A stretch of DNA of 64,000 bases from Hydrurus foetidus (taxonomy: Eukaryota). The stretch is taken from contig UYFQ01000132.1 of NCBI GenBank assembly GCA_900617105.1, positions 1 through 64,000 on the forward strand. Direction: 5' to 3'. Each line of letters opens with the position of its first letter. Within the stretch, counting starts at the first letter, position 1. Both the position numbers and the translations under genes were made by a program. Below the pieces are notes generated by a model. It was not told the DNA's origin, made no database searches, and was given only the letters and a program-made list of their open reading frames with translations. Below, piece after piece: positions 11,135-38,254 of the stretch.

Positions 11135-13771
11135 TAATCCAGTAAAAGTTGAAAATATATTCAACTAGTAGAAACACGAATAATCAGAGTATAATCTGTA
11201 CCGTGTGTAGCAAGCACATTCCTATCCATCAAGCACATTCCGCATTGTTCATAACACAAGACTCAATCTCCTTCGAATAGTCATTGGGACATCACATGAA
11301 CGTGTGCCATCTGTCAGCCATGACCATCTTCATACAAAGTCTCTCCCAATCATCTCCCAAATGGACGATTTTTTTCAGAACCTTAAAGCTGCAAGTAGAT
11401 CGCAGGCTACCATCGATAATTACGCTAGGAGAGAAAAGCAATTCTTTCGTTGGCTCAAAATTGAGAATCCCTCCTGTTGGAATGGTGATGATGTTATGCC
11501 TTCATTAGAAAGAGTTACTTCAGTAATGATGTGCAAGTTTATTTCAGTTCAGTCACTTATTGTGTCGACAGGAGCGATGAAGAGTTACTCTACTCCAGAA
11601 GGCCACCATTCTATGTTTGTAAATCTTTTTGGTCGTTTAAAAGTTCAATTACCAAAAACCTTCGAGAAAGAGTGGACTCAATTCTCAAAGGGGTACCGGA
11701 ACAAAGTTGCTGAAAACATCTCAGATGGAGTTACAACTACTGCTGGATCAGACAAGATTACATTCAACGAGTACAAAATGTTAGCTGCGCATGCAGCAAA
11801 GTCGAGCACTTTCTACGCTCACGGCTTTTTGGTGCTGGGATGGAATCTAATGGCAAGATCAGGTATCATTGGCCTGAAATTGTTTCAACTCTTACTATAT
11901 TTATGTCAAATCGCTAATACATTTGGTTTTACATTAGGGAGTACAGGAGACGTTAAGTACGAGCATTTACGTATGAATGGTGATCACATCATAGTGGTGA
12001 TCCCTCGTCACAAAGGGGATCGGTGTGGTGAGAATCCCACAGAAAAAGCCCTATTCTCAAACCCAACATGTCCAGAAATATGCCCTTTTCTTATGCTGGG
12101 AATTGTTTTGTTATCAAGAGAAATTTATCGTCCGCGCGATAGCATTATTCTCGGGACCAAGCTGGGTGAGAATATTAACTTATGGTTGAGAAGTGTCGCA
12201 ACAGCAACAGCTGAAGATGCTGATGGTGCGGTTGTTGGAGTCAATAGTGCTCATCTGACTTCACACTGCACCAGAAAAGGGTCCACATCATATGTTGTGT
12301 CTCTACCAGGGTTAAGCAATGTCATTGCTTGTTGGTTGAGAGCAGGGTGGCAGCTTGGTGGAGTCCTACCAGCATACATAACTGTCGAATCGGGAGGCGA
12401 TCAAACGGTTGGGAGAACAGTATCTGGATTGCCATCCGGTGGAATCGATTTCACTTTATTATCTGCGAGATTCAAGCCAGATGCAGCGATTGATTGGACT
12501 GGCATTGTTCCAAACTATGACTCCTACCCTGTGGATTTCCGTTTTATTGTCCCGTACTTGGTGGCAGCGGTAGTATACCACGCAGCTTGGATAAAGGACT
12601 ACCTACCTGAGAATCACCCTATCTTCATTGGACGCTGTTGGCGATCTGGTGCACAGATCAGCTTAAATCATTTCTGCTAGCACCATCTAGAATGGCATGC
12701 CATCAAACAGGAATGGTGGCTACAGGCATACCTCCACTGCATGCGTTCATGAATCAACAGCAGGACAGTAATTCAGCTATTTTATCTGCTATTGAACAGC
12801 ATAGCAGAGCAGCGGTAGAAAACACAAGGTCACCAATCGGTATGTGAAGCACATTGCTCTATCTGCGAATGAACTTGTAAACCACAATCACTATCATACT
12901 TCATCCTCTCAGATATCAGATTGGACAAAATTGAGTCCCTATTGCAAGAGACTCTGGATGCAGCAAAGAATTCGACATTCACTTGTTCTTGTTCCTCAAG
13001 CACAACATCATCCATAGTACCTGCTGTCAGCACTGATGCGATGGCCGCTGGAGGCGCTCGCACATGGCATTATGGGGGGAAACTACACAGAGTCCCAGCG
13101 GGTTTCAGGATGTTGACCAAGATATCACTACAAGCTCTGCATCAACTCTGGTACGACGGCATCGAGATCGAGAGAATTTGCCCTTTCCGGCTCCTGGACG
13201 GCAAAGATGTACACAAAGATGACAGAAAGCACCTTTCATCTGCGAAAGCTTTGGTGCTTGAAGTTGACAAGTTTTTGCCTGTTGGATTTAGGGCTTCAAG
13301 TTCGTCGGACAGAGATGTGGTCTGGGGCGGGGCCTAGGACGTTGGAGCTGATGTTGGTGGGCGGTTAGTGCAAGCGGTGGGCAAGGAAGGTGGTAGTCGG
13401 TGGAATAGACTTGTGTTAGTATCTTACAGTTGAGTATATACAAGTGATGTGTACGCTAAGTGCTCTCACGTCATATATGGAACTAAGACCTAAAAGTGGA
13501 ATCTGGGCGTAATATACCTATTGTACCTAGTTAACCTAGACACATTGTATCCCCTTAGGAATGCAATAAGGCTACACTACCCCTTCTTCCTTTTTTGAAG
13601 ATCTTTGATATGATATACAAAAAAAGAAAAAAAGAAAAGATATGTAAAACATATATGAGATATAGATGAAACGATTATGTCAGACTTTTACTGACTAAAC
13701 TCTCCAAAAAAGACCCGTAGGTAAAAAAAATAGGAGAGAATCCTCATGGATAAAGTTTCAAATATATTAAG

Positions 13772-15097
13772 TCATCGATGTTGCTTATTGATTAATTTAG
13801 TCATGTTATTATGACGTAAATAATCATGAAGTTTATCAACATCACGAAGACTTGAGTAAGGTTCCCAAGTGTTTTTGTCTGAAGGGTAATTTAACCATTT
13901 GACTAAAAACTCTATGTGGGTACGTTGGTGTTTGCCACGATGATCAAGAATGTCTTCAACAAAGTATTCCATGTGATCACGTCGTGCAACATCCAACGGA
14001 TTTGTGATTGAAGGGTCAAATAGAAACGGTTTCATTGCAGAAACATGAAACTCTGAAGTTTTCTGAGTGACTAGATCATATAGTGTATAACGCGAATTTT
14101 CGCCACTAACGACTTTTAAGGGACCTCTCCAATGCGTGTGAAGACGTGAAGGAGGAGAACCATCGCGATAGTGTACTAAGACATATGAATCTTTTGGATA
14201 CTCGATATGTTGAGAGATTTGAGACTGACTTTGATGAAGCAAATCTGTACGAAGAAGTTCTTTAGCAGAAGCTTTGAGGAGACTATCTTGTGTTTTGATT
14301 AGATTGCTTAATCGTTTTGACAAAGGTTTGTCATCAGTAACAATTCGCTCAGCAGGAGGTAAAAAGATACCTCTGTCGAGTTTAAGTACATTTCCGAAAA
14401 GAAGTTGTGAAGCTGATATCTTCAAACGATCACTGTGATTAGAATTTATAATTCTTTGCACAAATGGAAGTGATTCTTTATAGTCTTCTAGTGTGACATT
14501 ATCAAATGTTAATGCACGAAGATGTCTATTAACTTCTTTATTCATGCGCTCAACAATAGCATTTTCTTCTTTAGAGTATGCTAAAGTAAGACAATGTTGA
14601 GTGCCGATCAGAGTTAGAAACTCTTTAATTACTTCGGAAATGAAGTGTGGCCCATTATCAGAACGGAGTTGAAGAGGTGCGCCGAAACGACCGAAATGTT
14701 GCAAGAGGCATTTAGCTGTTGAAAGTGCAGTAGCATCTTCTGTATGAAACAGTTCAACCCATCTTGTGAACGTATCGATAATTACGAGTACGTACCCGCC
14801 GTCTGGAAACGGTCCTATGAAGTCTATGTTAAGGCATTCCATAGGTGTGTAAGTAGAAGTCGAGAAGCCATGAGCATGTATTGGTATCTTTAACATACTC
14901 ATCTTCTGACAACACGAACAGTGATCTATGAAGTACCTGACATGCTGTCGCATATATTGCCAATTTTCATTTCTATCTCTGAGACGTTTTATAGTACGCT
15001 CGAGGCCGAAATGACCAACTTGTGAATTGTGCAGTTTACTGATTTTATCATACTGCTCACGTGTTAGTTTAAATTTTTCAATAGTATTAGCAGACAT
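13772..15097 (-). CDS. Gypsy integrase plus chromodomain (pol 3' part, frameshifted from RT-RH near 15120)
   Basis: H..GHFG..C..C zinc finger, IDFIGP/SDNG/ERMN DDE core, GPY/F-like WRGP, YFVEDILDHR..FLVKWLNY..NTWEP chromodomain. Confidence 0.93.
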   Translation of the reverse strand: MSANTIEKFKLTREQYDKISKLHNSQVGHFGLERTIKRLRDRNENWQYMRQHVRYFIDHCSCCQKMSMLKIPIHAHGFSTSTYTPMECLNIDFIGPFPDGGYVLVIIDTFTRWVELFHTEDATALSTAKCLLQHFGRFGAPLQLRSDNGPHFISEVIKEFLTLIGTQHCLTLAYSKEENAIVERMNKEVNRHLRALTFDNVTLEDYKESLPFVQRIINSNHSDRLKISASQLLFGNVLKLDRGIFLPPAERIVTDDKPLSKRLSNLIKTQDSLLKASAKELLRTDLLHQSQSQISQHIEYPKDSYVLVHYRDGSPPSRLHTHWRGPLKVVSGENSRYTLYDLVTQKTSEFHVSAMKPFLFDPSITNPLDVARRDHMEYFVEDILDHRGKHQRTHIEFLVKWLNYPSDKNTWEPYSSLRDVDKLHDYLRHNNMTKLINKQHR

Positions 15098-17202
15098 GAT
15101 TGCATCAGGAGTATATTCCTGAGGAAATCAACCATGTTATTGCGACAGAGTCGAGACATCGAATCAGCTATATTATTGTTAGGTCCAGGAATATATTCAA
15201 TGTTAAATGAATATTCAGATAAGGCCATAAACCATCTGACAATCATTGGATTTGAATTTTCCTTTATGTATAACAAGTTACGATGGTCTGTACGTAATGT
15301 AAACGTACGATCACGTAATAGCGATTTTAAATACGTGCACGCATAAAAGATAGCATATGCTTCTTTCTGTATGACTGCCCAACGAAGCTGAGCTTTGTTG
15401 AGTGACTTACTAACAAATGCTATGGGCGTCTCCTTTCCGTCAACTAACTGGAAAAGATAGGCACCTACACCATAGTCCGATGCATCAGTGTGCAAGTATA
15501 TCGGATCGGTGTCACTTAGAAAGTGCATAGTCGTGCATTTAGAAATCTCAGATTTGATCAAATTGAATGCTCGAAGAGCTTCTATTGTCCAAGTTATTTT
15601 CTTATATTTATTGTAGTTAAGCAACAACTGGTTCATTGGATATACAACAGTTGAAGCGTTTCTAACAAAATCGTGAAAATAATTAACCAATCCTAAAAAA
15701 CTTTTAAGTTGTTTAGATAGTACTGGTTTAGGAAAATCTAAGACATTCCGTATTTTTTCTTGTGACATTCTTAGTCCTTCAGCAGAAAGAACTTTGCCAA
15801 CATAATCTATCTCGGCGTAGCCTAGATAACACTTATTCGGTTTAAGGAATATTTTGTGTTTTCTAAAGCGTTCAAAAACAAGACGAAGTCTAGAAATGAG
15901 TTCATCAATGTCTTTACCGAATACATTGCAATCATCAATATACATTTCGCATATAGAGTATATCAACCCTGCTAGCACAACAGTCGTCATGATCTGTTGG
16001 AAGTAGGAGGGAGCTTGTTTAGGCCCAAAGGGTAAACGAGTAAATTGATATACTCCGCAGAATAGTATGAATGCAGTATAAGCGCGTGCAGCGAGTGTAA
16101 GTGGTGCTTGATGATATCCTTGAGTAAGGTCAAGTACAGCAAATATTGTTGCTCCATGTGCACCTATTCGACGCAACATCTCACCGATGTGTGGAATAGG
16201 ATGTGATGTATCTTCGGTACAATTGTTTAAGTTCCGAAAATCAATACACATACGCTTAGTTCCATCTGATTTTGGAACTAATAAAACTTGGCTATAATAT
16301 GCCGCGTTTGATTTTTCAACAATCTTATGTGTTTCAAGCTTTGTGATTTGACTTAAGATGTCAGCTTGATCAACTATTGATTTTGTCCATGGAGGTTGCC
16401 TATTTTTAGAGACTTTCCATTGGCTATCATTGACATTAAAGTCAAAAGGTGGAATATCAGCAGGAGTATGTGATAGTTCACTACTGAATATATCCTCAAA
16501 TTCGTGTACTAGTATACGTAATTTATTTTTTAGTTCTTCATCACCTGCTAAGTGTATTAGCGAGAGCGGGTCTGAATCAGGGAATTCATCCATCCAAGGT
16601 GAAAACGAGTCCTTGATCGAGTCGTCGATTTCGTCCTCATCAGGTGGTACTGCTCCAAAGAGTCTATCTGACTCTTGGATTAGCGAGGCTAGAATAACGT
16701 GTGTTTGGGCGACTGCCGGTTTCACCTTTTGGGTTAAAGGATCCACTTTTGGGGAGCCTTCGGAGGGTTGCAAATTCTCCTTAGGCAGACAGCCACACGT
16801 TATGTCCACATCTTCAGAAGTTAAAACTTCTTCTAACGGAACAGTGCCTGATGAAGCATTGGCGGATATTTGATCCGGGAATCGTGAAAACAAATTCAAT
16901 TCACGAATTGTTTTTCGTCCGATTACAAGATCGAATTTGGAGTCTTCTAAAACATAAGCCGTGATTGGAAAAGTAAAATAATTATTTATATCATGGCAAA
17001 AAGAAGAAAGAGTTAAGTCTATAGTATCAGAGATATCATAACAATGATTATCTAATCCACTACAAACTCTACACAATTTATTATTAGTATTAGAAATAAA
17101 TTGAGTTAATTTATGTGAAAGTATGGTGCGGCGATTAATAAAGTTGCCAGCGAAAGAGCCGGTGTCCAGAAGAGTAAGTACTCTATCACTTTTTCCCAAC
17201 AA
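15064..17202 (-). CDS. Gypsy pol: aspartic protease, reverse transcriptase, RNase H
   Basis: LLDTGS, RMCIDFRNLN, LDLTQGYHQ, LPFG, YIDD, TDASDYGVGAYL, TDHRNL, ADSMSR. Confidence 0.95.
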   Translation of the reverse strand: MLGKSDRVLTLLDTGSFAGNFINRRTILSHKLTQFISNTNNKLCRVCSGLDNHCYDISDTIDLTLSSFCHDINNYFTFPITAYVLEDSKFDLVIGRKTIRELNLFSRFPDQISANASSGTVPLEEVLTSEDVDITCGCLPKENLQPSEGSPKVDPLTQKVKPAVAQTHVILASLIQESDRLFGAVPPDEDEIDDSIKDSFSPWMDEFPDSDPLSLIHLAGDEELKNKLRILVHEFEDIFSSELSHTPADIPPFDFNVNDSQWKVSKNRQPPWTKSIVDQADILSQITKLETHKIVEKSNAAYYSQVLLVPKSDGTKRMCIDFRNLNNCTEDTSHPIPHIGEMLRRIGAHGATIFAVLDLTQGYHQAPLTLAARAYTAFILFCGVYQFTRLPFGPKQAPSYFQQIMTTVVLAGLIYSICEMYIDDCNVFGKDIDELISRLRLVFERFRKHKIFLKPNKCYLGYAEIDYVGKVLSAEGLRMSQEKIRNVLDFPKPVLSKQLKSFLGLVNYFHDFVRNASTVVYPMNQLLLNYNKYKKITWTIEALRAFNLIKSEISKCTTMHFLSDTDPIYLHTDASDYGVGAYLFQLVDGKETPIAFVSKSLNKAQLRWAVIQKEAYAIFYACTYLKSLLRDRTFTLRTDHRNLLYIKENSNPMIVRWFMALSEYSFNIEYIPGPNNNIADSMSRLCRNNMVDFLRNILLMQSCLLILLKNLN

Positions 17203-17387
17203 CGGCTCCTGTGAAAGAGGAGAGATGTAAAAAGGGATCAGCTCTGGATCATCGGAGAGAGTAGATGATGAGTTGAGGTTGCATAGTTGCCTACCTTTGT
17301 GTTTCTTCGAAGGGTGTGTCGAATCTGCTGTTGAAGTAGCAGACCTTGAGACGAAGAAGAGGTTGTCTTACTCAATGAACTTTTGGA

Positions 17388-18614
17388 TCAACTCAGATGA
17401 CCCTCAGAGTTGATATAGGGGGCGTCTGTACTGTTATAGTACGGAGACGAAGTGTAGAAACACGTGGCGACTATATGGCCGAGTCTCCCACAACCTGTGC
17501 ACATAGGTCGTGGAGGCCTATCAGACTTTTCAGCCTGCACAGATTGCTCGTCTTCTCGTTGACGCTTTTTGATTTGCGAATCAAGAGAAGAGCGAGGTTG
17601 GGCTTTGATCTGGCGAGAGTTATTGCCATACACAGGTGTGACATCAATGAAACGCAAAGCATCAATTGATTCACGAAGTTTTGCTAACTGCGCCAGCCAT
17701 ACGAATCGAAAGTCTTCGATCGTGATGAGTCTAGGCGTAGTGTCGTCAAGACAACGTTGTAACACTGCTCTCCAATTGACAGGTTCGACTGGCAACTTCT
17801 CGATGAGAATTTTTGTTGCCTGAAGTTGGAGAGCAGGTGTCACATCAGGGAAGGCATCAACAATATCTGCTAAAAGCTGATCTGTTTTATCTTCGACTGA
17901 TTTGTTCTTCAGGTCGAATTGAAGTGCGACCTGAGAAACTGTTTCAATGAAACTCAGCTTGTCAGTACGATTGACAGCTGATGTAGGAATTGTGAGATTT
18001 AATTCTCTACAAAACATTTGATTCGTCCAATGCTTCCAACCGTTACACGCATCACGACGAGTTGGATTCGTCGCGAATTTACGCTTGAGAAGCGTTGTGA
18101 ACGATTGATGGTTCGAAGCATGAACGACATCAATTGGTCGAAACGGAGTTCCATTTGAAAGTAGAACCTCCGTAACTCGTAAGACTTCCTGTCGAGAGGG
18201 CACGGCGCTCAACTTAGGAGCTCTCTCACCCGTTTGCACATAGTGCTGAGGTGGTGCCATCGAACGTGGAATCTCAGCCGAAGCTGGTGTCGCAGACGAA
18301 TCTGGTGTCTCAGCCGAAGCTGGTGTCTCAGCCGAAGCTGGTGATAACGTTAGAGCGGATAAAGCAGATAAAACAGGAACATCAATGACAGACGAGACCG
18401 CAGGCTCCGAATTCCGCTGAGGAATCGGTGCAGACAGGTCGCCGGCGGGGTCCTGAGCCGCAGGTGGCCCAGGAGACTCGATGTTATCTCCTCCACGATT
18501 GTGGTGCTCCTCGTAACGTTGTCGGAAGGCGACGGCGACAGCTCTAGGGGGCTGTCGTTGTCGGCGAAGGGAGTTGATGGTGCTAATCCTCTTGTCCTGG
18601 CGTCGGAGAGCCAT
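17388..18614 (-). CDS. Gypsy gag
   Basis: First ORF after the 5' LTR; CCHC knuckle CTGCGRLGHIVATC. Confidence 0.85.
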   Translation of the reverse strand: MALRRQDKRISTINSLRRQRQPPRAVAVAFRQRYEEHHNRGGDNIESPGPPAAQDPAGDLSAPIPQRNSEPAVSSVIDVPVLSALSALTLSPASAETPASAETPDSSATPASAEIPRSMAPPQHYVQTGERAPKLSAVPSRQEVLRVTEVLLSNGTPFRPIDVVHASNHQSFTTLLKRKFATNPTRRDACNGWKHWTNQMFCRELNLTIPTSAVNRTDKLSFIETVSQVALQFDLKNKSVEDKTDQLLADIVDAFPDVTPALQLQATKILIEKLPVEPVNWRAVLQRCLDDTTPRLITIEDFRFVWLAQLAKLRESIDALRFIDVTPVYGNNSRQIKAQPRSSLDSQIKKRQREDEQSVQAEKSDRPPRPMCTGCGRLGHIVATCFYTSSPYYNSTDAPYINSEGHLS

Positions 18615-20528
18615 TGTCTTCGACTGTCGGAAATGAGTGATGGGATTTGAAATTGATGGAGCGGAGAAACGAATTTCTCACGAAAAAAAGCTTCGGTATC
18701 GACCGAATATCGATATTGTGGTCTGGGGCGGGGCCTAGGACGTTGGAGCTGATGTTGGTGGGCGGTTAGTGCAAGCGGTGGGCAAGGAAGGTGGTAGTCG
18801 GTGGAATAGACTTGTGTTAGTATCTTACAGCTGAGTATATACAAGTGATGTGTACGCTAAGTGCTCTAACGTCATATATGGAACTAAGACCTAAAAGTGG
18901 AATCTGGGCGTAATATACCTATTGTACCTAGTTAACCTAGACACATTGTATCCCCTTAGGAATGCAATAAGGCTACAGAGATGCAGCCTTCAAAGTGGCT
19001 TTTAATTCGATGGCATCATCATTTGAATTACCTACCAATGACTTATTACAGAAAAGAAAAGCTCTCGAAATCACTGCTTACACAACACTGTACACAAAAT
19101 TTTATCTACCTAGCAAGAAGAACAAGGAATCTCATCCGTCTCATCCAGCTTAAGCTAATTATACTTATCTGATATATATTAACTCATTTTTACTCAATGC
19201 TACTGCCGTGCACCTTACTTCTGACCGACGAAAATATTTACTTTACAGCGTAAATCTTAACTACATGATCGACTGATGTATTCAGAAAGGCACAATGATT
19301 CTCTCGGCTCATTTATGGCTACAATCACGGTGACTTTTCGCATAGGTTAACAATCACGGTACTTCCAAAGTGCGGTTTACAAAACAGAGCTCACTGTTGA
19401 AAGAGCATTAGATAATTAATTAACATCATATATTGTCTCTGTATGACATCGAAGGCAGAGAATTTGAGATGAAAGAACGAGACATGAAGAAAATAATCAT
19501 ACAATTCGTGAAGTCTCTGATTCAGCCTAATAGCGTAAGGGATAAGTCAGATTATCAAGAGGCAACGATAGAGAATGATGATAAATGTGCTTGGGGATAA
19601 GAATAAAAACGTCGGTAGGAGCAAATGTGGCCGCGGTCGATTTGGCGAGCATCTCAACCTCATATCCAAGAGTTCTTCACACTGGATATTTAAACTATTG
19701 CCTCTCCGAGTGCAACAGATGGCACAAAGTGGTCATCCCAGAATGATGTAGAAAGCTGCGTGCCAAACGAGATCCCTTCAAGGAATTGGTATTCCTCCCA
19801 AGAAAAATTTGCCAGAGTTTCCCCCGTTTCCTGATAGGGAGCCAGGAAGGAAAATATGAGTTACGAGAGAAGGTTGTGTCGCGCAGTCAGTCTTCTATTC
19901 CGAAATGACAAGTCGATGGAGAGTAGGACCGAATCGTCGTCGCAGTCGCCACTATCCCCGGAATCTATGGACGGACGCTTCAGATAACAGTTCCGAACAG
20001 AGGCAGCACAGTCCAATTTTGGCTTCCAAGGCTCTGCTGTGACGGAGAAAAATGTCACATAAAGTTGGTCCTATTTCGACAGGATCCTCAAAATTTCAGC
20101 CCCATCGGTGAAACTTTTATTGTGGAAGTTGTGTCTATTGTGATCGCTGCGGAGAGACATCCGCGAAATTGAGAGCAGCAGCGCAGAGTACCACCAAAGT
20201 TTGAGTGTGGAGAAATTTTTGGACCCAGGGCTGGAATCTTTTCAACTTTTTCAGAATTATGTACATAATTTCAATTGTACACCACATAATTCCTCACTTA
20301 ATTTCCTCAAAGTTGAACGATTTTTTCAACTCTGGCTTGAAAAGTCGACTATTTTTCAACTTTTTCCGCTTATGTAGAGCTTGTGGCCGGTGCCTTGGCC
20401 GACCGGTCATCTTTTTGATGACCGGCCAATCTGCACCTACCATATTAGGGGTAAATCTACCGAAATATAGGGTGACTTTCCAGAATTTTAGGGGTAGCTC
20501 ACAAAATTCTCGTACTTTTGGGGGGTTA

Positions 20529-24521: not shown

Positions 24522-25707
24522 GAGATTTTGTAAAGTCCGATTCAGAAGTGGATCAGAAGCGAAATCGCGAAACGCTTCAGATTCAAATTAAAGACTCCTT
24601 GACTTAAAAGGATCAATTTTCAGAGTTAGAAAGCATCCTTTATTGGATGTGCTGTGAATGATGAATGTTCGACATCAATGAAACATCAATGGTGATGCCC
24701 AATACTGTACAGAGGTCGTAATTCCAGAAATAAAAACACAAAAATAGGCACTTGACGGTATTTGAACCCCTTACACGGTTTAAATCATTGGCCGGCCGGC
24801 CAACCAGCCAATGGCAGAAATTTTAGGCCGGCCTGTTGTGATTTGTGGTCTCACAAGGGCATACGTATGTGCCAGTACGGCTGGTCACAAGCTCCCCACT
24901 GCTCTCTCCGAGGGCTCTTTACTGGTCGCAATTCGTTTGCGAGAGAAGAGTTGGAATCGGCTACGAGATTGGGTTAATTAGCACTGCCACAGTGCAGTGA
25001 TCGCAAGTTGTCAACGTTGTATTGGTACCAGTTTTAGTGTCTCTAGTCTACGTGTGTATGTCGTATGTCAGGCGTTTGAATCAGCATGTACGTACGACCT
25101 AGGGTTCATTCAATACGGATAATAGCATCACAAGTTGTATTTTGTATATCAGTGTGTATTTAGTATATGGTTATTTTATATGATATTACTACACACCCCT
25201 ATGATGTGTTGTTCGTATTTAATATCAAGGTTAATATAAGTGGCTATATTTTCTAATAGATTTGACAATTAAAATTTAATTCAAAAATGTTCAGGCAATT
25301 CAAGGTGTTCTTATGTCTTAACTTATGATCACCGGAATATCACGTCGGCGTCGTGTACTTATCGATCTCTGATCAAAATAATTGCATATATGTTGGTAGA
25401 ATGTAGTAGAAATAGAATGAGTTGATGTTTGGAGTTTTCATCTCTGGTCTTCAGTGTTCGCGTCTTGAGTGTTCAGGTCTTGAGTGTACGTGTCTTGTAA
25501 GTACGGATCTCCAATATGACAGTCTTGAGTCTTGAGTGTTCAGGTCTTGGAGAATGATGTTGTAGGGTAGAAGATTTCGAACGGAAAAATAGAATCGATT
25601 CAAACAGAACATAAATATTATACAATGCATAGGGTTGATTTTTGGCCGAAGTAGTAGGAAAGATTTCGGAAAAGCGTAGGTAGAAGAAAAATAATGGAGT
25701 GGAATAC

Positions 25708-28700
25708 TCAGGTGATGTTGAGTAGTAAATTTCTTAGAGCTCTGAACTGCTCTCCTTGTAGGGGTTTGGTCAGCATATCCGCTAACATCTCTTTTGTCGG
25801 TTTGTAGGTCACTTGTACTTCTTTATTTTTTATCCGGTCTGTCAAGAAAAAGTACCGGATGTCTACATGTCTTGTCCGTTCGCTGTTGGATCTCCCGTTG
25901 GTTATAAGTTGGATTGTTGATTTGTTGTCTTGGAATATGATGGCTGGTCTGTTGGCGTATCCTTGGGCTATGATGAAGTAGCGGGTCCATAGTATTTGAT
26001 TCGCTGAATCACTAAGTCCCACTAACTCCGCCTCCGTACTCGACTTAGTAGTAAGTTTTGAGTGGAGCTCTTTGCATAGATGGATCCTCTGCCTAGGGTG
26101 ATGGTGCTTCCAGTGTGGCTCTTCATGTCTTGATGCACCCCATATGATGCATCTGTATAGGAGATGACAGTCAATGGATCGTCAATAGTGAGGGTGAGAC
26201 CGAGGTCTCGGGTACCACGTATGTACTGGACAGTACGTTCCAGCTTCTTCATATCATCCGTCTGGGGCTTCGTCACTCTCTTTGTCAAAAATGCTACCGG
26301 CGTTAAGATATCCGGTCTTGATCTTTTGCTAAGATAAAGCAACTTGGCTGTAATGGAATGAAAGTATTCACGAGCAGAAGTGGTTAACAATGGGTTAGTC
26401 GCTTCCGGTAAAACCGAAAATAAATCCGGCTTAGCCGGTGTAGGTGACACCCCTAGAATGTCTTTACAGTCTTCTAGCAGCTCCTTGATAAATCCTTCCA
26501 TAGTTATAATAACTTTTCCAGCTGTCTCAAAATTGAAGGTCATACCTATGTAATTAAGTACTTTTCCTCGATGTTTTGTTAGTCCAGGGTATAAGTTTTC
26601 AATTTCATCAATAACATAATCAACATGTTTTTCATCACAGCAAGTTATCATCATGTCATCAACGTGGATTATTAGTGTAGTTTGTTTATTATTAGATTCA
26701 GTTCTGTTAAACACACATATGTCATAAGGGTTTACAGTATACCCTAACAATGATAAGTCATGTGAGATTTTATCATACCATAATTTAGCAGATTCTACAC
26801 ATCCATACAATGCTTTTTCAGTTTAACAATGCATGTGCCTTTATCATTAACATATTTGGTATATGATTTATCAATAGATATTAACACTCCAGTCAAGTAT
26901 TTATTCAGTCGCATATATACAGTGTGAGTGCCCTCTAAAGGCATATCACTATTCAAAAATGCACCAGGAAAATCAATTGTAGCTATCGATCTACATTCAT
27001 GGGCAGCAATTGAAGCAACAATAAACACGCTAGTAGTACTAACAGTTGGTGAAGATCCATTGTCATATATATCTCTGTCTTGTAAGTGGCCTCCTGCTAC
27101 TAATCTAGACTTAAGCTTATCAAATTTACCGTCCGCCGTATACTTATCCTTTAAAAACATGCTACTAGTTATGATGTTGCTTCGTTGAGTCTGACTAAGA
27201 GAGCTGATCAACACTCCCTCCCAAACATCTTTTTCACACATCTGTTGCATTTCTTTTCTAATGGACTCTACAGCAATATTGCCTAACTTATCAATGCCAT
27301 CTTTAACAGTCATGTTGAAAGCATATGAAAAATTGGTGGATGGTACATGATTCACAGCACTACATCTTATAGTGTAATTTCCTCTCCTAGGAACCCATCT
27401 GCCTGGTTTATGATTTCTAGCGCTACGTCTCAAAGCAGGCTGTTCTATCTCAGGCATTGCATCGGTAAGTACGTCATCAACAGCGTACGTATTATCAATA
27501 ACATCATGTGGTTGATATGGTGTAAGTACATCATCTTCAGTGTGCACATCATCTACATCAGGTGTAACATATTCAGTCAAAGTATCGTCATACTCAACTG
27601 GTTCAATATTCACATCATCAGTTCCTGTCTGTGTGTAGTCAAAATCATCTTGATTATTCATGTCACTCATATCATTAATGTCAGGTACATCGGATATGAT
27701 ATCAATTTCGTTTATGTCATTCATCATGTATGGAACGGGTGCATCATGCTGTACGTTCATTTCATCAACGTATGAATCATCATACATTTCATCTGTGTGA
27801 GGTGTCACTGCATGGCTGAATCTACGCATATTTTTGTTATATATATTTTCATCATCATAGTCAAGTCCATCATCAACTATCACACGCTTATTCTGTTCAA
27901 ATATAGGTTGACTAGCATTATTATTTTTGTTAATGTTTCTCTTTTCAGATAATCCATTAATGTAAGTTATGACTTCATCAGGCATAGGTAATGATGTGGC
28001 TTTTGTACGTTTCACTATCTGTACGTTATTGAGTAACATGTAATACCAAGATCCCTCAAGGTTGCCTGCACTCATCAGCTCGATAGCACCTGAAGTTCTG
28101 GCTTTATTACTGTTATCAATATTGTCAGAATGTACTTGCACGTAGTCACCAAAACCATGTTTCAGTTCTTTATCTACGTTAATCTTTCTACCGTATAGTT
28201 TCTCCCTAGGGCTAACATAGTCAACAGTGTTCCTTGTCGGAACTAACACTATACGGTTAACAGCATATCTAACTAACCATCCTTCTAACTTCTCAGTTAA
28301 TTTAAAAGGTAGTGTGTTAATAACTGCTCTAACTCTCTCTTTAATCTGTCTTATCTTACGCTCAACTACTGTGACTGCCTCTCCTGCACCTGTCGTATCT
28401 AGTGCAGTACCTATACTAGCTAACTTAGTTTCAAACCAAACTGAATTGATCGCGCCTTCACCATCAACTCTAACTAAATCTAATTTGAAACCATACTTAG
28501 TAATATGTCTAATATCGCTCTCTAGGCTAGTCCATAGTGTGAGGTTTGTTCTATTATTTAACTTATTTACCATAACATATTCTAATGGCTTAACAACGGC
28601 AATTAAAAATGGGTTGCCGTTAACAAACATTATGTCTATGTACATTATCTGTTTTAAATCTTGTATGTTATCTAACAGAGGTTGCTCATCTTCAACCTGT

Positions 28701-29530
28701 GCCTGATGGCTTGGCGTTTTGCCCTTTAGGGAGCCCAAGTCAGGACCCAAGATATCCAATGACCTAACTACATCTTGGGCTGTAATGTTGCTATTGACTA
28801 GTTTACCTTGACCTATCAGCTTAATTAGCTGACCTGGACTAACGTAACCTAATTTCCTCTGATATTCTCTAGCTAACTCAGCCTGTTTTACCTGTCTAAC
28901 TGTATACTTTTTCGTCTTGTCGTTCACAGTAGTAACTAACATTAACTTAGGTTTGCTTACCATAGTGTTCAAGTTACATATATATATATTATATTTAATA
29001 TCCCTATTGAAGTAATACCAACATCCGCCTCTTTTAATTTGCAAACTGTAAAAATCACCTTTGCTATCATACTTCACTGAGTGACTATTATTTACCATAT
29101 TTGCAAAAGACAAAATGTTTGCTATACAGTTAGGGTCATAGTAGACTACTCCAAAATCTGTCCTCCCGCACTCTGTGATCGTCAATGGCTCTCCTCAAGT
29201 GTTTACTCCATTAACGACCATAGGTGTATGTGCAGGTACTATATCATAGAACAGTGTGTCAGTCCTAAACACTGATTCGCCAGCACATGTATCAAGCAAC
29301 AGCAAATCATCACCAAACACTTCAGGATTGTCAGTGATATCTATGCTAAATATGTTGCTATCTACGGTTATCGTGTCCGTCTCTATCTCAGAATCTTGAT
29401 CATCTATATATTTAATTTGTACATATCTAGAAATGCGTACGTGCTTGTCAATTTTATCCACAACATCAGTCACATCATTATTAACATTACTAATCATGTC
29501 ATCATGTAAAGAATCATATAACTGACTTAC
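25708..29530 (-). pseudogene. Copia-1 pol (PR-IN-RT-RH) with an in-frame TGA at 29195 and frameshifts near 26815 and 26057
   Basis: LLDTCAG protease; IDIMF/DGEGA/ERKIR integrase; KSRLVAGG, DFPGAFLN, LYGCVES, HVDD RT; TDASY, SSTEAEL, QDN, ADMLTKPL RNase H. Confidence 0.92.
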
Positions 29531-30765
29531 TTTCCCTTTCCTTTGCCGGGCGGTGTCGTGGATTTTCCACCGGGGCTCTTGCCTCCTTCGTCTCCCCAGT
29601 ATTGGGCTACCGTGTCTGCGGGGTCTCCCCTGCACTCGTAGGCCAGGTGGCCGAATTTTCCACAGTTGTTACAAGGGCCTCTCTTGTACCCCTTGGGTGG
29701 TGTGGCTGATGCAGTGTAAACTGCTGCGGTAGCTGCAGGAGATCCTTTCTCGCTGCTGTTGCTGTCGGGCGAGTCTATCCCATCCCTCACCCACCTAGCG
29801 CCAGGCGCGCTCTTCCCGTTATGTCCTCCGGGGTATCCTCCGCGCCCTCCTTTCTTTCCTCCTCTCCCAGTCATGGAGAAGGCATTGGCTCGTTCCATAG
29901 CACCCGGTGAGTTGTTCAATATCTTCGTTGGTCTGAACTTCGACGCTTCGTTGTAGGACTCCTCTAGACTGTCTGGCCATATCTTCAGACTATTAATATA
30001 AAAGTTTTTGAACTCCGAATAGTAGTTGTTAAGTTCCAGTATGAACTTTACTGCCATTCTCCCTTCAGGATATAGATCATCTAACCCCGTCCTGCCAGCC
30101 GCCTCAAACGCTTGTTGGATAGCGGTGAGGGCTGACTTAGTGTTGGTCAGGTACGTACTTAAATGCTCGTGTGGTTGCATGACTAAATGATCATATCTCT
30201 GTTGGATATTATGCATTTGGTGCTCCGCACCAAGTGTTGAGTCTCCAACGTGAGTAGCAAGGATGGCTTGCATTAATTTCCTAGGGTCCTGCTCTGATTC
30301 TGCTTGGACTCCTACGTTGACTTCCTTCACTCTTATCTTTGAATTTTCGGACATCTGTCCGACCATTGCTCCATAGAGATTCTGTTTGTCCTCCTCTAGC
30401 TTTGATCGAGCTTTTATGTGCTCTGCTTGCTCAAGTTTCCATATATCCCTGTCGTCCTGGCTTGCTCCATCTCCAGGTGGTGGTGGTGTAGCTAGGACTG
30501 GGTAGTCGCCTAAAGTGCCGTCTGCACCAAATATAAGACTAACTTTAGACTTAAAAGTTGTCATGGCGTGCTCCTTCATCTTTCCCATGAACTTAGTTAC
30601 AGCTCCAGGGACAATGTCCTTTCCCGGTTGTAAATCTAAGTAAGTTCCAATTGACGGGATGTTTCCTTTAATGTGGTTATTTGCGCCAGCTCCTCTGCCA
30701 CGGTTACCAAAATATCCTCCTCCTTTGCCACGTCCTTGTGGTGGAGGGTTTCCACGCCCTTTCAT
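29527..30765 (-). CDS. Copia-1 gag
   Basis: ATG 40 nt from the 5' LTR; CNNCGKFGHLAYEC knuckle; RGG-rich segments. Confidence 0.88.
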   Translation of the reverse strand: MKGRGNPPPQGRGKGGGYFGNRGRGAGANNHIKGNIPSIGTYLDLQPGKDIVPGAVTKFMGKMKEHAMTTFKSKVSLIFGADGTLGDYPVLATPPPPGDGASQDDRDIWKLEQAEHIKARSKLEEDKQNLYGAMVGQMSENSKIRVKEVNVGVQAESEQDPRKLMQAILATHVGDSTLGAEHQMHNIQQRYDHLVMQPHEHLSTYLTNTKSALTAIQQAFEAAGRTGLDDLYPEGRMAVKFILELNNYYSEFKNFYINSLKIWPDSLEESYNEASKFRPTKILNNSPGAMERANAFSMTGRGGKKGGRGGYPGGHNGKSAPGARWVRDGIDSPDSNSSEKGSPAATAAVYTASATPPKGYKRGPCNNCGKFGHLAYECRGDPADTVAQYWGDEGGKSPGGKSTTPPGKGKGK

Positions 30766-32678
30766 AGTTGCAATGTCGTATTGCAATCTATGAAGTGCTA
30801 ATTATGTTGTGATTTGTGGTCTCACAAGGGCATACGTATGTGCCAGTACGGCTGGTCACAAGCTCCCCACTGCTCTCTCCGAGGGCTCTTTACTCGTCGC
30901 AATTCGTTTGCGAGAGAAGAGTTGGAATCGGCTACGAGATTGGGTTAATTAGCACTGCCACAGTGCAGTGATCGCAAGTTGTCAACGTTGTATTGGTACC
31001 AGTTTTAGTGTCTCTAGTCTACGTGTGTATGTCGTATGTCAGGCGTTTGAATCAGCATGTACGTACGACCTAGGGTTCATTCAATACGGATAATAGCATC
31101 ACAAGTTGTATTTTGTATATCAGTGTGTATTTAGTATATGGTTATTTTATATGATATTACTACACGGCCAGGCCGACGCCTGATTTGGTCGTCGGCCACA
31201 AGCTCTAATTATATGAGTATAGACCTGCGTAGGGGCATAGGCATATGCGCATATATATGCAAACGGAAAATAAGCCTATATATGCGCTTATATAAGCAAG
31301 ACCTAATTACATATGCAAATTACTATAACAGGCCTAATGTGGATTAGTATATGAACCCAGTACAGAATACAGATTTATATGTACAGATTTTTTATATACA
31401 GATTTTTTACAGATCCTGCCGCTAGTGCTGAAGGAGCCATGCATGATGACGAGGAAGAGAACTTAGAGATCGATTTCGAGTACGATGTTCCTGACTTAGG
31501 AAGAGACGTATTAGCGGCTCTACTGGCTGCAGCTGGTGTGCAGGAGCATGGAGATTTTGGAATGTGATGGCCTTGTTCGAATCGATAGTTCTGCTGGCCG
31601 CAGCTAAAGTGCAGGAAATATTAAGATTTGAAATGTGACCACCTTGTTGTAATCGATTTTAATGATCTAGCGTATTTGTCTCAATGTATATAACGTACAA
31701 CACTGGTCACTTCAATCGACTATCTTTTCTGATGCGACTTACATAAAATAGACTTTACACTCTATTCCTCAACTTTGAGCCTCTCGATCGCGATCAACAA
31801 TCACAAACCCAAGATGACGGCAGAGCACATTGATTTCTTCAGATGCTGGACTTCTGACGATTGATTTCTTGTTCGGAACGCTCTAATTATCAGGTAAGAG
31901 AATCGCAGGGTGCTTTGAGCAACCGAAACCTTATTCCTGTGGATCGCAAAAATCTCAATCAGAGACGAGTTTTTCTGATGCCTCGATTTGATCCCCCAGA
32001 TTAATCGAGGTCGTCTGATCAGACAGGATCGATCTTTGAGGTGTCGTGATGGGGCTGCGAGTGGATTTCTTTCCCTTGAAGGTGTGAGTAATGACATTTT
32101 GCCGATTGTGTCATCACATTGGGTGCATGGTTTTTAGCGACTATTTTGTCGTGTGCCACAGTCAATTAATTGATTCAGCTGCTGCCTCTTTGCACCTGAT
32201 ATGCTGTGGGGTCTTGAACGAAGTCTGTGAGCTCCAATCTGCTGAATCTGTCGTCCCTAGAAATCGGCAGCTTCTTTTTTGACCATCTCTTCTCTATATC
32301 TCTCCTTCTCCAGTTCTTTCATCAAGGAATGAACCCTCTTTGACTGCGGTACGAAGTAGGTGGAGATGTTTTTCATCTTCTTCAAGTTGCTTGACCACTC
32401 TGCTATGAATATTACTCCTATGCATGGCTCATCGCACAGCTCAGGAACGTGCATGGCTCAAGATGGCATCATTTCCTGAGTGCCGATGCACGGGTATAGG
32501 ATAATTTGAAAATCTTGAGCATCCGATCCTGAGCTATCCGAGCTTTACGTTACTCTCCGTATAGTTTCTATACGGTACTTCTCACTCCTCAATGCATATA
32601 TTTTGCATATATATGCATGACCGGATGAAAAGTGCATATTGCCTATATATAAAAAGATTTTTTTGCCTATGCCCCTTC

Positions 32679-35600
32679 TGTTGGAGAATCTTTAGGTTCC
32701 TAACACTGGAGTGAGGAACGCGGACCTTCAGTCTGGAGATTCGAATACCAAGGCTTGTGAGATGAGACTCTTGTTATCAATATTCACTTGTTAATTTGAC
32801 TGTGCCTCATCCCTACTGAAGCCCTGAGTCCCCTTTCAATGCAATGATAAATTCAAATCTTACTCTACTGTTGAAGTACGGTGATCCAACCAGGTCCATA
32901 CATCTTCACCACGTATGCACACACACACACACACAGGTTAATCCGTATGCCGCTGTACGAATGCATAAGTACACATAATGTGTTCGTGTCATGAACTCAG
33001 ATATATCCAACACACCCCTATGTCACCACACATTTGTTCGCAGTTTGATATTCAAGCATTCGTTTTCTAATAATATTTAATAGTTTAAGCTAAGTCTTTG
33101 TCTGGCCACCCCGTGACCCCATATCTCTCCGATTTGTACTGCGCTCCCTGGAGCGGTTTGGTCAGCATGTTTGCATACATGTCCTTTGTCCCGAGGTGCA
33201 CGACCTTGGCCTCACCCATGTCGACTCGCTCCTTCAGCCAGAAGTACTTGATAGAGATGTGTCTAGTGCGCTCTGCCGCTGACCGCCCGCGATCGATAAG
33301 TGCCATGCATGACATGTTGTCTTCGTAGATAGTCACTGGTCCACAGGAGTGTCCTTGACCTATGATGAAATTTCTGACGTGTAGAGCTTGGTTAGCGGAG
33401 TCAGACAGCGCCACCAGTTCTGCCTCCGTACTCGACTTCGTCACGATCTGCTGCTTCGCAGATTTGCAGTGCACTGCACCCCTGCTTCCCACCACGATAC
33501 AACTACCAGTGTGCGATCTTCCGTCCGGGTGCACTCCGTACGCTGCATCTATCAGGACGCTCACAACTATCCCCTTGTCTCCTGGAGCGAATATTATCCC
33601 GCGTTCTCTCGTCGCCCAGATGTATCTCATCAGCCTGTCCAGTTTCGCTAGGTCGTCCGTAGTGCACTTCGTCACTCGAGTGGCGAGGAAAGCCACGGCA
33701 GTCAGACAGTCCGGTCTAGCTCGCTTCGCAAGGTACAACATCTTCGCTACTTGTCTGTGAAAAATGACTCTTTGTTCCTCGGTTACCTCTGCGATGTCTG
33801 GTCTCACGTCGAATAGTCCCTCCGTCGCTGGTGTTCGTGCACCCTTCACCGTCCCTACTTCCTTCAGCATGTAATCCACGTAGCCTGTCATCGATACTTT
33901 CGCTACACCTGGTGCTGTCAGGTCGAACACCATTCCAAGGTAGTTGACGACAGGCCCGTCTTTTCTCGTGATCTCGCCGTATCTCCTCTCCAGTCCGGCT
34001 GCTAGCGAATCGATCATGTCCGTATCCGTGCTTGTGATCATCAGGTCGTCTACGTGGATAGCTATGGAGCACTGCACTCCGCGAGCACGCATATGTCGTA
34101 TACATTCGATTTGTACCCCAGATTGTGTAGGCTCGCTCTGAGGTTCTCGTACCATAGTGCGGCTGATTCCACACATCCATACAAAGCCTTGTCTAGTCTC
34201 ACGACGACGCATCCCCTATCGTCCATGAACTTTGAATAGTGTGGTGCAAGCTTTACCATCATTCCTGTCATGTTCTTATCTAGTCTCATATGAACCGTGA
34301 GTCCGGTGTCCATGTCAGCGTTTAAATATGCACCACTGATGTCTATAGCTGTCACTTTGCGACCTTCGTGCGCTGCGATACACAGCAGGGTAAATACAGA
34401 GCTGGTTCCCACGGTTGGTGCGGACAGGTCATCGTAAAGCGTCTTGTCCTGCTGGTCGCCGCCAGCCACAAGTCTAGCTTTGAGTTTCTCAAATTCTCCG
34501 CTCGCAAGGAATTTCTCCTTTAAGAACATACTCGATCTGATTATGCGTGCCTTCTCCTCTCTTGGAAGTCTCTGCACGTCCACGGGTGTCCACACTTTCT
34601 TCTCTATCATTTGGCTGAGTTCTTTCATTATCACACACTCTGCGTCCTTTCCTCTCGTACGCAATGCCTCATTCACCGATATGTTTAGTACATACTCTGT
34701 CCAGTCTCCACCTGCTGAGTTGTAATTACGTGTGAGGAGCGCCGCCCCTTGTCTGTCTCCTCTGAACATGTTCATCAGCTTCTGTCTAGGTATCACCATG
34801 TGTCCGACTGACGAGTATCTGTTCTCTTCATCGAGTGTTTCGCTGTTTTTCTCTGTAATTTCTGTGCCTATTGCTCTGTTCTCCCCATAGTCCTCGGGGA
34901 CTCCTTGCTCATCAGCGTCCTCGTGTGGAGATGCACGTGGTTGACCTACTGCGAGCTGTCTGAAACTGCTCATGAGATCTTCCATTTCGACCGCTTTCGG
35001 TTCTACACGCACTCTCTGAGCAGGCACCATGTCATCCACGTAGTTCGACTCTTCGATGTGCAAGTCATCCTGCTGAGTCTCACCCACATCGTCCATCACT
35101 TGGTCCGTTTCGCAGTATATCAGTTCCTGATTGTGATTCGCATCCATAAGAGACACCGATGGATCAACCCCATTGTTCACCTCTGCCACCATAGTCTCGG
35201 GTAGACCGTTTCTGACGTCCCCATCTTGCTCGAAGGTCACAGTTCGTCTCACTAAATCATCCTTCCCTTTGACTCTCCCATCAGCCAGTGCTAGCTCGTT
35301 CAACTTCTTAATGACTGACTCGGGCATCGGCATGACAACGAATTGATCTCTGTTGACGAGCTTCCCTGTTGCTAACGAGAGCATTCTGACAGTCCCGGTG
35401 CGGTTCCCTAGTGGGAGCATAGCGACGCAATCTTCTGTTCTCGATTTGAGTGTCGCATCCGTGTTCGGCACTGTGCATTGCACGTAGTCGCCGAACGAAC
35501 ATCGGAAGTCTCTCTTGCCATCTGGTTTCCTTCCTATAAAAGCCTCTCTTGGGCTGGGACCCCATTCCCGATCCCCCGCGGGTTCATAGTTCAGCCTTGA

Positions 35601-38254
35601 TACTACGTACAGTACGCACATTGCGATACCTACGCTCGATAATGTAAAGGGAAGATGATACGACACGTATGCACGTAACCTTTCTTTAATTACTCGAATC
35701 CTCCTCTCTACTCTAGCAACGTGTCCACCCGCACCGCTGATATCGACATCGACTCCTAGCTTCCCGAGTTCGTCGACTAGCGTAACTACAGCTCCCTCTC
35801 CATCGCTCATGATGACTGAGGTCTTAAAGCCTTGGGATCCTAGCACTCCGAGGAAATGGGCTACTCCTTTCCTTACATGCTCTGCTGATCTGCTCGACTT
35901 CTTGAGCACCAGATTGTTCAGACTATATGCTATAGTCAGTCCTAGTGGAGTTGCCAGACCGATTAGAATAGCAATTTTGTCTATGAACATAATATCGATG
36001 GCTAGCACCTGATCCTTTTGGACAATTTTCGCTTTGATCGTCATATCAGCTGTAGCAGTCGCGCGTTTCGTAGTCTTTCCCTTAACGGAAGCCATATCCT
36101 TCCCCCAAATTGCTTCAGCGATCTCAAAATCCCTCGATGTGATATCGAAGTTACTCCCGGAGTTAATGATAGACATCGCCATTCCAATTGTCGGAAATCC
36201 CATTCGACTCATCAGCTCGCGCGCTGATCTCGCGCGACCGATTTCCCTCTTAGTGAACGCTCTCAAGTTCTGCTCCACTGTCGTTACCATCGCTGTCTCG
36301 TTCTCGATACTTCGCCAATCGCAGGAGTAGAACCTTCCTTCGCTACCAGGTAAAGTCTTCCGACCAAATCTGTAGATGTTGTCGCTATCCTTCGGCTGCA
36401 ACGTGAAGCAGTCATCCTCGTGCTCGTAACGTATCGTAGCTCCAGCATCTACCTGCGACGCAAACGATAGGACGTTAGCAGATGCATCTCCGCTGTAATA
36501 CACGGTCGCGAATTCTCCAAAGTCTCCTTCACTGTCGACAGTAACACCCCCACCAGTCTGGATTCCACTTACTTTGATCGAATGCTCCGCCTTGCGTATC
36601 CCGGTTAGTAAATCCTTATTGTTGAAGATGTTCAACGATGCCTCATTGTCTAATAGGACGTCGTATTGCGTGAACAGGCACCTTTCGCACGATGTGATGA
36701 GTGCAATTCCCCATCCTCCTTCATGACTTTCGTCGTCACTGTCCGGTTCACATTTCGTCACGTGGACTTTGTCAACTACTGATTTTCTGTTGGGGCAGCT
36801 TCTTGCGATGTGCCCCTTTCCTTCACAGGCGTAACACTCAACGTCGGCTAGCGATTTCTTTTTGGTCCCTCCGGTCTTCCCGGCTTGTTTCTCGGTGTCT
36901 TTAGAGATAGTGACGTGAACTTCCTCTGTTACTAGTGCGGCCCCTGAGGGTGTCGGTTGCTGTTCCTAGGGTGCTCCACCAATCCCTTGCCAGCGTGACG
37001 CTATACGGTATGCTCGTGCGAGTGTGGGGGGGTAGGCATCAGCCTTGTGTCTCAAGGCGTCGTTGTTCATGGCTTCGGTCATGACCCTGTAACGTTTCTG
37101 ATCAAGCTTCCCCAGGAAATCTAGTGCGCGCAGTGAATCGGTGATCTTCGTGACTCCGACTGCGTCATTGGCTAGCACCTGCTCATCAAATCTTGCTTTG
37201 AAAGTGTTGATGAACTCCCTCTCCCCTTGCCTCATCATCCCGTACTTACACTCTTGTTCGTGTCTGTTGACTTCTCTCATCGGGTCCGAGTCCCCATACA
37301 TGTGGGTGAGGTGTGTCTTCCTTATGAGCGTCCAGAGTAGTACACAATCCAGTGTTAGGTACGCGGTTTGGTAGTCATCCTCTTCCTTAACTCTGCTCTG
37401 TGAGCTCGGTGACATCCGCTTCCACATCATCGGGAAAACCGTACGTTCGTTTTCTTTCTGAGTCTTGAGGTCTCTCTGCCTCTGGATGTAGTCCTCTTCT
37501 CTGTATTTCGCTCTCGAGCGTTCCGCGGCTTTGCGTCGCCTTTCGTTTCTAACCTCTCTCGCGGCGGATCTTGCTGGTTTACCCGCGGCGTAGGCTAGGC
37601 GTGCAGCTGCTTCTGCTGGTGTCACTGCTGGGGGTTCATCTTCTTCATCCCCTGGAGCGTCTGGTTCCGATTCGGACGTCGAGTCTTCTGACGACGATGC
37701 GTCTGGATATTGGATAATGTTCCTTGGGAGTTCGTATCTCACGTCCGTTGTGAAGAACATCCCAACTATGCCGTATAGTTCGGTGACTATAGTTTGCATA
37801 TTCTCTCGCCATTTTATAGCGTTGTTGAATTTGCCGTATTGAAGGATGCACTCTTCAGTGCTTTTCAAAGCTTCGACGGCGCGTTTTGGAGGCATGTCAA
37901 TGCCGACGACAGTCAAATTATGTTGGAGAATCTTTAGGTTCCTGACACTGGAGTGAGGAACGCGGACCTTCAGTCTGGAGATTCGAATACCAAGGCTTGT
38001 GAGATGAGACTCTTGTTATCAATATTCACTTGTTAATTTGACTGTGCCTCATCCCTACTGAAGCCCTGAGTCCCCTTTCAATGCAATGATAAATTCAAAT
38101 CTTACTCTACTGTTGAAGTACGGTGATCCAACCAGGTCCATACATCTTCACCACGTATGCACACACACACACACACAGGTTAATCCGTATGCCGCTGTAC
38201 GAATGCATAAGTACACATAATGTGTTCGTGTCATGAACTCAGATATATCCAACA
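32679..38254 (-). mobile_element. Copia/Ty1 LTR retrotransposon, family 2
   Basis: 334-bp LTRs 32679-33012 and 37921-38254 (TGTTGGA...TCCAACA, 1 difference seen), 5-bp TSD CCTTC, PPT-like CATAGGGGTG. Confidence 0.97.
33085..37895 (-). pseudogene. Copia-2 gag-pol, a single frame broken by TAG at 36966 and a small deletion/frameshift near 34085
   Basis: Frame continues through the TAG into a CYACEGKGHIARSC knuckle, LLDNEAS protease, IDIMF/SDGEGA/ERRIR integrase, KARLVAGG, LYGCVES, HVDD, KSSTEAEL, ANMLTKPL. Confidence 0.92.

Follow-up and report, generated by a model that had tools for sequence, protein, structure and literature searches.

To our knowledge, the only experimental demonstration of reverse transcription primed by an element's own RNA comes from a Gypsy element, and among Copia elements such priming has been predicted for a single plant lineage. 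The Gypsy element Tf1 primes with its own first 11 bases after a cut by RNase H (PMC7175516), requires three duplexes to do so (PMC10085805), and its primer site has been found copied onto cDNA ends (PMC11042837). In the plant TAR lineage of Ty1/copia elements (Houba, Osr-1), self-priming has been predicted for 89% of 203 elements, the criterion being an LTR complement of at least 10 nt that starts 0-5 nt past the LTR (PMC6317226); the statement in the initial annotation of the present DNA that no self-priming Copia had been described does not hold in view of this prediction.

The window, that is, the whole 64,000-nt stretch of the Hydrurus foetidus contig analysed here, carries three LTR elements, all on the minus strand: E0 (13316-18977), E1 (24834-31164) and E2 (32679-38254). 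E1 is a recently inserted Copia LTR retrotransposon. Its 360-nt LTRs differ from each other at 1 position and end in TG...CA, and it displays the further features of Ty1/copia elements, namely, a target duplication, a purine tract and an integrase ahead of an RVT_2-type RT/RNase H. Its parts are as follows.

30805-31164, minus strand: 5' LTR of E1, 360 nt, TG...CA, with 1 difference from the 3' LTR.
24834-25193, minus strand: 3' LTR of E1, from comparison of the LTR pair.
31165-31169, with the second copy at 24829-24833, minus strand: 5-bp target-site duplication GGCCG on both E1 flanks; contigs joining both flanks exist.
25194-25200, minus strand: polypurine tract AGGGGTG adjoining the 3' LTR; the same tract occurs in E2 and similar ones in relatives.
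29527-30765, minus strand: gag ORF, 412 aa, with a zinc knuckle (Pfam; 50 homologues).
25708-29668, minus strand: pol, with protease, integrase, RT and RNase H in that order (RVT_2 match and integrase-like region).

The gag and pol genes of E1 overlap in different frames, and pol is disrupted by an in-frame TGA (29197-29195) and by changes of frame at two places, near 26800 and 26100. Pfam searches of 16 ORFs detected the zinc knuckle of E1 gag, RVT_2 downstream of the E1 integrase-like region, RVT_2 in E2, and RVT_1, rve and a chromodomain in E0. Rve had no match in E1 among these 16 ORFs, and its integrase is labelled from the conserved D, D and E residues and Atlas clusters; the protease and RNase H are what we take them to be from their motifs and position. 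Based on this domain content, E1 and E2 are assigned to Copia and E0 to the chromodomain Gypsy elements. The sequence around E1 (24790-24833 and 31165-31200) is GGCC-rich. The flanks of E1 are joined in contigs of all four sequencing runs, which means that unoccupied E1 sites occur; the insertion target may be repetitive itself.

On the minus strand, the 5' LTR of E1 ends with CACAACA at 30805 and the next letters are TAATTAGCACT (30804-30794), while AGTGCTAATTA is found inside the LTR at 30956-30946.

30946-30956, minus strand: predicted self-primer, LTR positions 209-219, running from the A of a CA dinucleotide; exact complement of 30804-30794, with a putative start at 30956.
30794-30804, minus strand: primer-binding position right after the 5' LTR, without TGG; exact complement of 30956-30946.

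The complement is exactly 11 nt long and its 3' end pairs with the first post-LTR base, so that the initial annotation was correct both on the missing TGG and on the exact match to the element's own LTR. Of 20,000 dinucleotide-shuffled E1 LTRs, 3 reach 11 nt at offset 0, and 23 do so when offsets 0-5 are allowed. By the self-priming criterion of PMC6317226 (an LTR complement of at least 10 nt, 0-5 nt past the LTR, no TGG), E1 counts as self-priming, with 11 nt at offset 0. No tRNA genes were found within the 64-kb window. In contigs covering 30300-31300, neither arm contains a variant among the 40 listed of 257 variant places, a sample too partial to count. Some E1-like contig variants match E1 in the arm region and at the LTR end but not in the loop between them (joints 30810-30931 and 30814-30928), and in others the similarity breaks off at 30958-30959, which is 2-3 nt upstream of the arm; with sides of only 20-23 letters, these joints near the arm are a hint.

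E2 represents a separate Copia family, its Pol being 31% identical to that of E1 and its gag barely alignable. It too has a complement in its LTR, of 12 nt, with letters unlike those of E1 and again ending at the first post-LTR base, and is likewise self-priming by the criterion of PMC6317226.

38034-38045, minus strand: predicted 12-nt self-primer of E2, LTR position 210 (1 of 20,000 shuffles).
37909-37920, minus strand: primer-binding position of E2, right after its 334-nt LTR; exact complement of 38045-38034.

In E2, gag and pol share a frame with a single TAG between them (36966-36968), which represents either read-through or a mutation, and the zinc knuckle lies past this stop. E0, taken as a negative control, has neither an LTR complement (best 4 nt) nor TGG. 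At its primer-site position (18706-18717, minus strand) lies a perfect 12-bp palindrome, which takes in the final A of the LTR and has a hairpin directly behind it, an arrangement resembling the Conserved Hairpin Site described for GalEa Copia elements (PMC5445492), although E0 is a Gypsy element. Elsewhere in the window, an inverted repeat at 63098-63188 has 43-nt arms, a 5-nt loop and 93% complementarity.

Relatives were collected via integrase alignment, using the best 77 of at least 275 confirmed metagenome stretches and 2 genome-contig loci; a gag-based metagenome scan and two viral scans yielded no relatives. Of the resulting 81 sequences (79 loci, E1 and E2), 51 extend 1,700 nt or more upstream from the integrase anchor and form 44 families, 42 of them environmental; the remaining 30 were too short and were omitted. 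Each family is represented by the member with the longest repeat. LTR ends predicted from the terminal inverted repeat alone were in the wrong place in many loci, and this approach was dropped as the main rule. A family was accepted if its longest perfect inverted repeat upstream of pol was at least 10 nt and started at the CA end with an offset of 0 or 1. Because the terminal-inverted-repeat rule is unreliable, most family LTR ends depend on the repeat itself, and the CA test is the independent part of the rule. The longest inverted repeat reaches at least 10 nt in 39 of the 42 environmental families and at least 12 nt in 31; it begins at the CA end (offset 0 or 1) in 32, and both criteria hold in 31. 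In control windows of the same length from the integrase region, the maximum is 10 nt (2/42) and a CA start is seen in 5/42. One locus, L015, has two LTR copies that set its LTR end at position 178 independently, and a 14-nt complement starts at 179. The paired length in the 33 accepted families (31 plus E1 and E2) is 10-16 nt, with 14 nt in 14 families and a single outlier of 33 nt.

Nine of the 11 families outside the rule either carry a perfect arm of 9-16 nt at an LTR end of variant form or have an arm of 9 nt. The other two are L037, which starts ~78 nt before its primer site and so has probably lost its LTR arm by truncation, and L035, where the match is imperfect as judged by eye. LTR ends other than CA (CT, TA, CG, GA), with the perfect boundary arm kept, occur in L057, L049, L019, L020, L027 and L030; the LTR of L057 starts with AG and ends with CT. 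The 33-nt perfect arm belongs to L033 (288-530), where the outermost 16 nt of either side fold into a hairpin; it could have arisen by plus-strand copying past the primer or be an assembly artefact. In L009 (1-14079), units of the element follow one another head to tail, separated by single LTRs, reflecting either a collapsed circular assembly or a tandem insertion of the Tf1 type. L001 and L002 are eukaryote-type Copia contigs within two bacterial metagenome-assembled genomes, likely due to binning contamination.

The arms differ between families in sequence. The first ten nucleotides of the primer site comprise 29 distinct 10-mers among the 33 accepted families, mostly very A/T-rich; none of the 33 has TGG at this site, and 10-nt matches between non-cognate sites and LTRs occur in 12 of 1,056 pairs, mostly between sister families. 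A/T-rich arms, together with the many relatives that are collapsed short-read contigs and the odd 33-nt arm of L033, might point to a chance match or an assembly artefact. However, the shuffle, integrase-window and non-cognate controls speak against this explanation, as does the presence in the window of two independent full-length elements, E1 and E2, each with target duplications, and its probability is negligible. The feature of E1 is real and lineage-wide.

The same diversity bears on tRNA priming. The E1 site has an 8-nt match to what is presumably the anticodon arm of tRNA-Ile, which we count in favour of priming by a host tRNA half. According to this alternative, already raised in the initial annotation, E1 would be primed by a tRNA-Ile half in the manner of the Bianca elements of plants, 92% of which have this predicted primer (PMC6317226), and the LTR match would be incidental. 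However, the 8-mer is present only in E1 among the 33 families, the closest relatives of E1 in the tree have other letters, each matched by their own LTR, and one tRNA cannot serve 29 different 10-mers. Priming of E1 by tRNA-Ile thus appears very unlikely.

The pairing itself is of one type. When G-U pairs and mismatches were allowed over the first ten positions in 42 families (the 33 accepted and nine added by hand; 2 of the 44, L037 and L035, were omitted), 416 of 420 positions were Watson-Crick, 4 were mismatches and none was G-U, a result to be read with the caveat that the families entered through perfect repeats. Among decoys, the best helices at 200 sites, 287 of 2,000 positions were G-U and none was all Watson-Crick. 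Furthermore, in five alignable sister elements 70 of 70 cells are paired, and 4 of 14 pairs have changed on both sides and 0 on one side; the corresponding test of paired cells gave 1 of 500 shuffles, with the qualification that the sequences are related and the structure was taken from these sequences. L009 and L010 differ by one double change between the arms, and L019 and L022 by a matched 1-nt length change in both arms. Arms that are exclusively Watson-Crick would fit a primer site copied from the primer rather than selection on RNA shape alone. Nevertheless, the duplex might be a structural RNA involved in packaging, dimerisation or control of gag translation, with priming by another, unrecognised route: it is located in the 5' leader, typically 16-75 nt upstream of the gag ATG, and folds in most predicted leaders. 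Selection on shape, however, should allow G-U pairs and any endpoint, whereas no G-U is seen in 420 positions and the arm starts at the first post-LTR base; moreover, no TGG is left for a tRNA. We consider a purely structural role improbable.

Folding of the E1 leader from 30956 gives pair probabilities of 0.81-1.0 within the primer helix, with 0.39 for the first pair. Two further structures are predicted in E1.

30807-30827 (30827-30822 with 30812-30807), minus strand: small predicted U5 stem TTGTGA/TCACAA in the predicted fold of the E1 leader; not shown to be general in relatives.
30762-30793, minus strand: predicted hairpin right after the primer site, containing the gag ATG (30765); z -3.5 in E1, z < -2 in only 3/33 families.

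The first of these is the stem near the LTR end that had been noticed in the initial annotation. Across families, the mean pair probability of the primer helix exceeds 0.8 in 25 of 33 predicted leaders and is near 0 in four. In a simple duplex-energy test, pairing of the U5 end with the loop is better than in shuffles in none of the 33 families, E1 included, and pairing of the post-primer-site sequence with the loop has z < -2 in 7/33 families, E1 not being among these. The three-duplex pretzel of Tf1 was accordingly rejected as a general feature, as the flanking duplexes are found in 0/33 and 7/33 families and neither in E1. The original description of E1 as Tf1-like stands for the central duplex and not for the two flanking ones.

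The lack of a conserved pretzel is also what would be expected if the primer were a short RNA of its own, made at the start site of any LTR copy as an abortive or processed transcript, in which case neither fold-back nor an RNase H cut would be needed. The range of paired lengths, 9 to 16 nt, and the 8 of 33 leaders in which the helix is not the favoured fold are consistent with such a primer, which also predicts Watson-Crick-only arms. On the other hand, Tf1, the sole characterised case, uses RNase H cleavage (PMC7175516), and in the 42 scored families the primer has its 3' end precisely at the LTR boundary, for which a duplex-guided cut would be simpler. We therefore regard a separate short RNA as unlikely and favour a primer folded back from the element's own RNA.

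The position of the arm within the LTR is consistent with a transcription start. The LTR arm begins no more than 1 nt from the A of YCA, the initiator consensus, in 24 of 33 families (background 9%), and no more than 1 nt from the A of CA in 28 of 33 (background 17.5%); at their predicted starts, E1 and E2 have GCA and not YCA. In 11 families the A of YCA or CA adjoins the paired stretch without being part of it, which might mean that the base next to the cap is not copied.

Overall, judging from these sequence comparisons, a primer derived in some way from the LTR is highly probable for the E1 lineage, and it is likely that E1 dispenses with a tRNA and primes reverse transcription by fold-back and cut, using the 11 bases predicted to begin its own RNA. 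Transcription would start at or beside 30956, and the 5' end of the RNA would fold onto 30804-30794. Cleavage behind base 11, for which the element's RNase H is the probable enzyme by analogy with Tf1, would leave a 3'-OH, from which RT would extend the primer directly into the terminal CA of the LTR. Plus-strand synthesis would then copy the primer into a new primer site, and we infer that the arms stay Watson-Crick-perfect and change together because of this copying. The RNA that supplies the primer may be the same molecule or a co-packaged copy, between which the sequence cannot distinguish. Compared with the initial annotation, the self-primer reading has gained E2, the 31 of 42 environmental families, the double changes, the Watson-Crick-only arms and the initiator-like start, while the start and the primer remain predicted. 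We lean slightly towards a broader scenario, in which the whole deep Copia radiation, comprising the diatom elements and the sister group with E1 and E2, has dropped tRNA priming in favour of a pretzel-free self-priming that originated independently of Tf1 and plant TAR. The site would be rewritten in each cycle from cap-proximal bases, and the co-evolution of the arms would result from copying and not from compensatory selection.

Self-priming Copia elements are not new on paper; for the diatom-related lineage we found no paper on self-priming, in a literature search outside of which lay most subscription journals and the Repbase and GyDB entries. If true, a second and very diverse self-priming Copia radiation would mean that the switch from tRNA was repeated or is old, and either would be relevant to the idea of self-priming LTR precursors that has been put forward (PMC3601003). 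The self-complement, if it is a primer, predicts transcription starts from DNA alone, and it would explain missing primer sites in the tRNA-based annotation of such elements. It could also provide a Copia system for testing the mechanism, e.g. in the stress-induced elements of Phaeodactylum, if the feature is shared there.

The integrase region of E1 matches diatom proteins (Epithemia, Attheya, Ditylum) at 28-30% identity, as well as Atlas clusters of eukaryotic integrase-like proteins. A quick integrase tree of 52 rows without an outgroup groups the three named diatom proteins within one 16-row clade (support 99) and places E1 together with seven loci and three homologous proteins in a different one (99); the partner of E2 is L059 (96). 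Elements with a self-complement are spread throughout this tree, including the grouping with the diatom proteins. The CoDiI and CoDiII Copia elements of diatoms (Maumus et al. 2009) share with E1 the Copia order, a similar size and the distance from canonical Copia; E1 and E2 both lie outside the clade of named diatom proteins in the quick tree, which has no CoDi reference rows. A term search of the main text of the CoDi paper returned no mention of tRNA, self-priming, a primer site or Tf1 (PMC2806351).

Fungal GalEa Copia elements, like E1, lack a tRNA primer site, but their site as described is a local palindrome with a hairpin for which the authors found no LTR complement, whereas the complement of E1 is in its LTR (PMC5445492). 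TAR elements, compared here by description, are a plant lineage with mostly one ORF, whereas E1 has gag and pol in different frames and its named relatives are from diatoms; no named TAR proteins are among the E1 matches listed. Tf1 and Tf2 of S. pombe, which represent the Tf1/sushi group, are Ty3/gypsy chromoviruses, whereas E1 has its integrase before RT, an RVT_2 domain and no chromodomain found, and is thus not a member of that group. Self-priming of Tf1 was shown by experiment, whereas that of E1 is predicted from sequence. What the two have in common is a post-LTR site that is perfectly complementary to a segment of the LTR, is 11 nt long and takes the place of a tRNA site (PMC7175516, PMC10085805).
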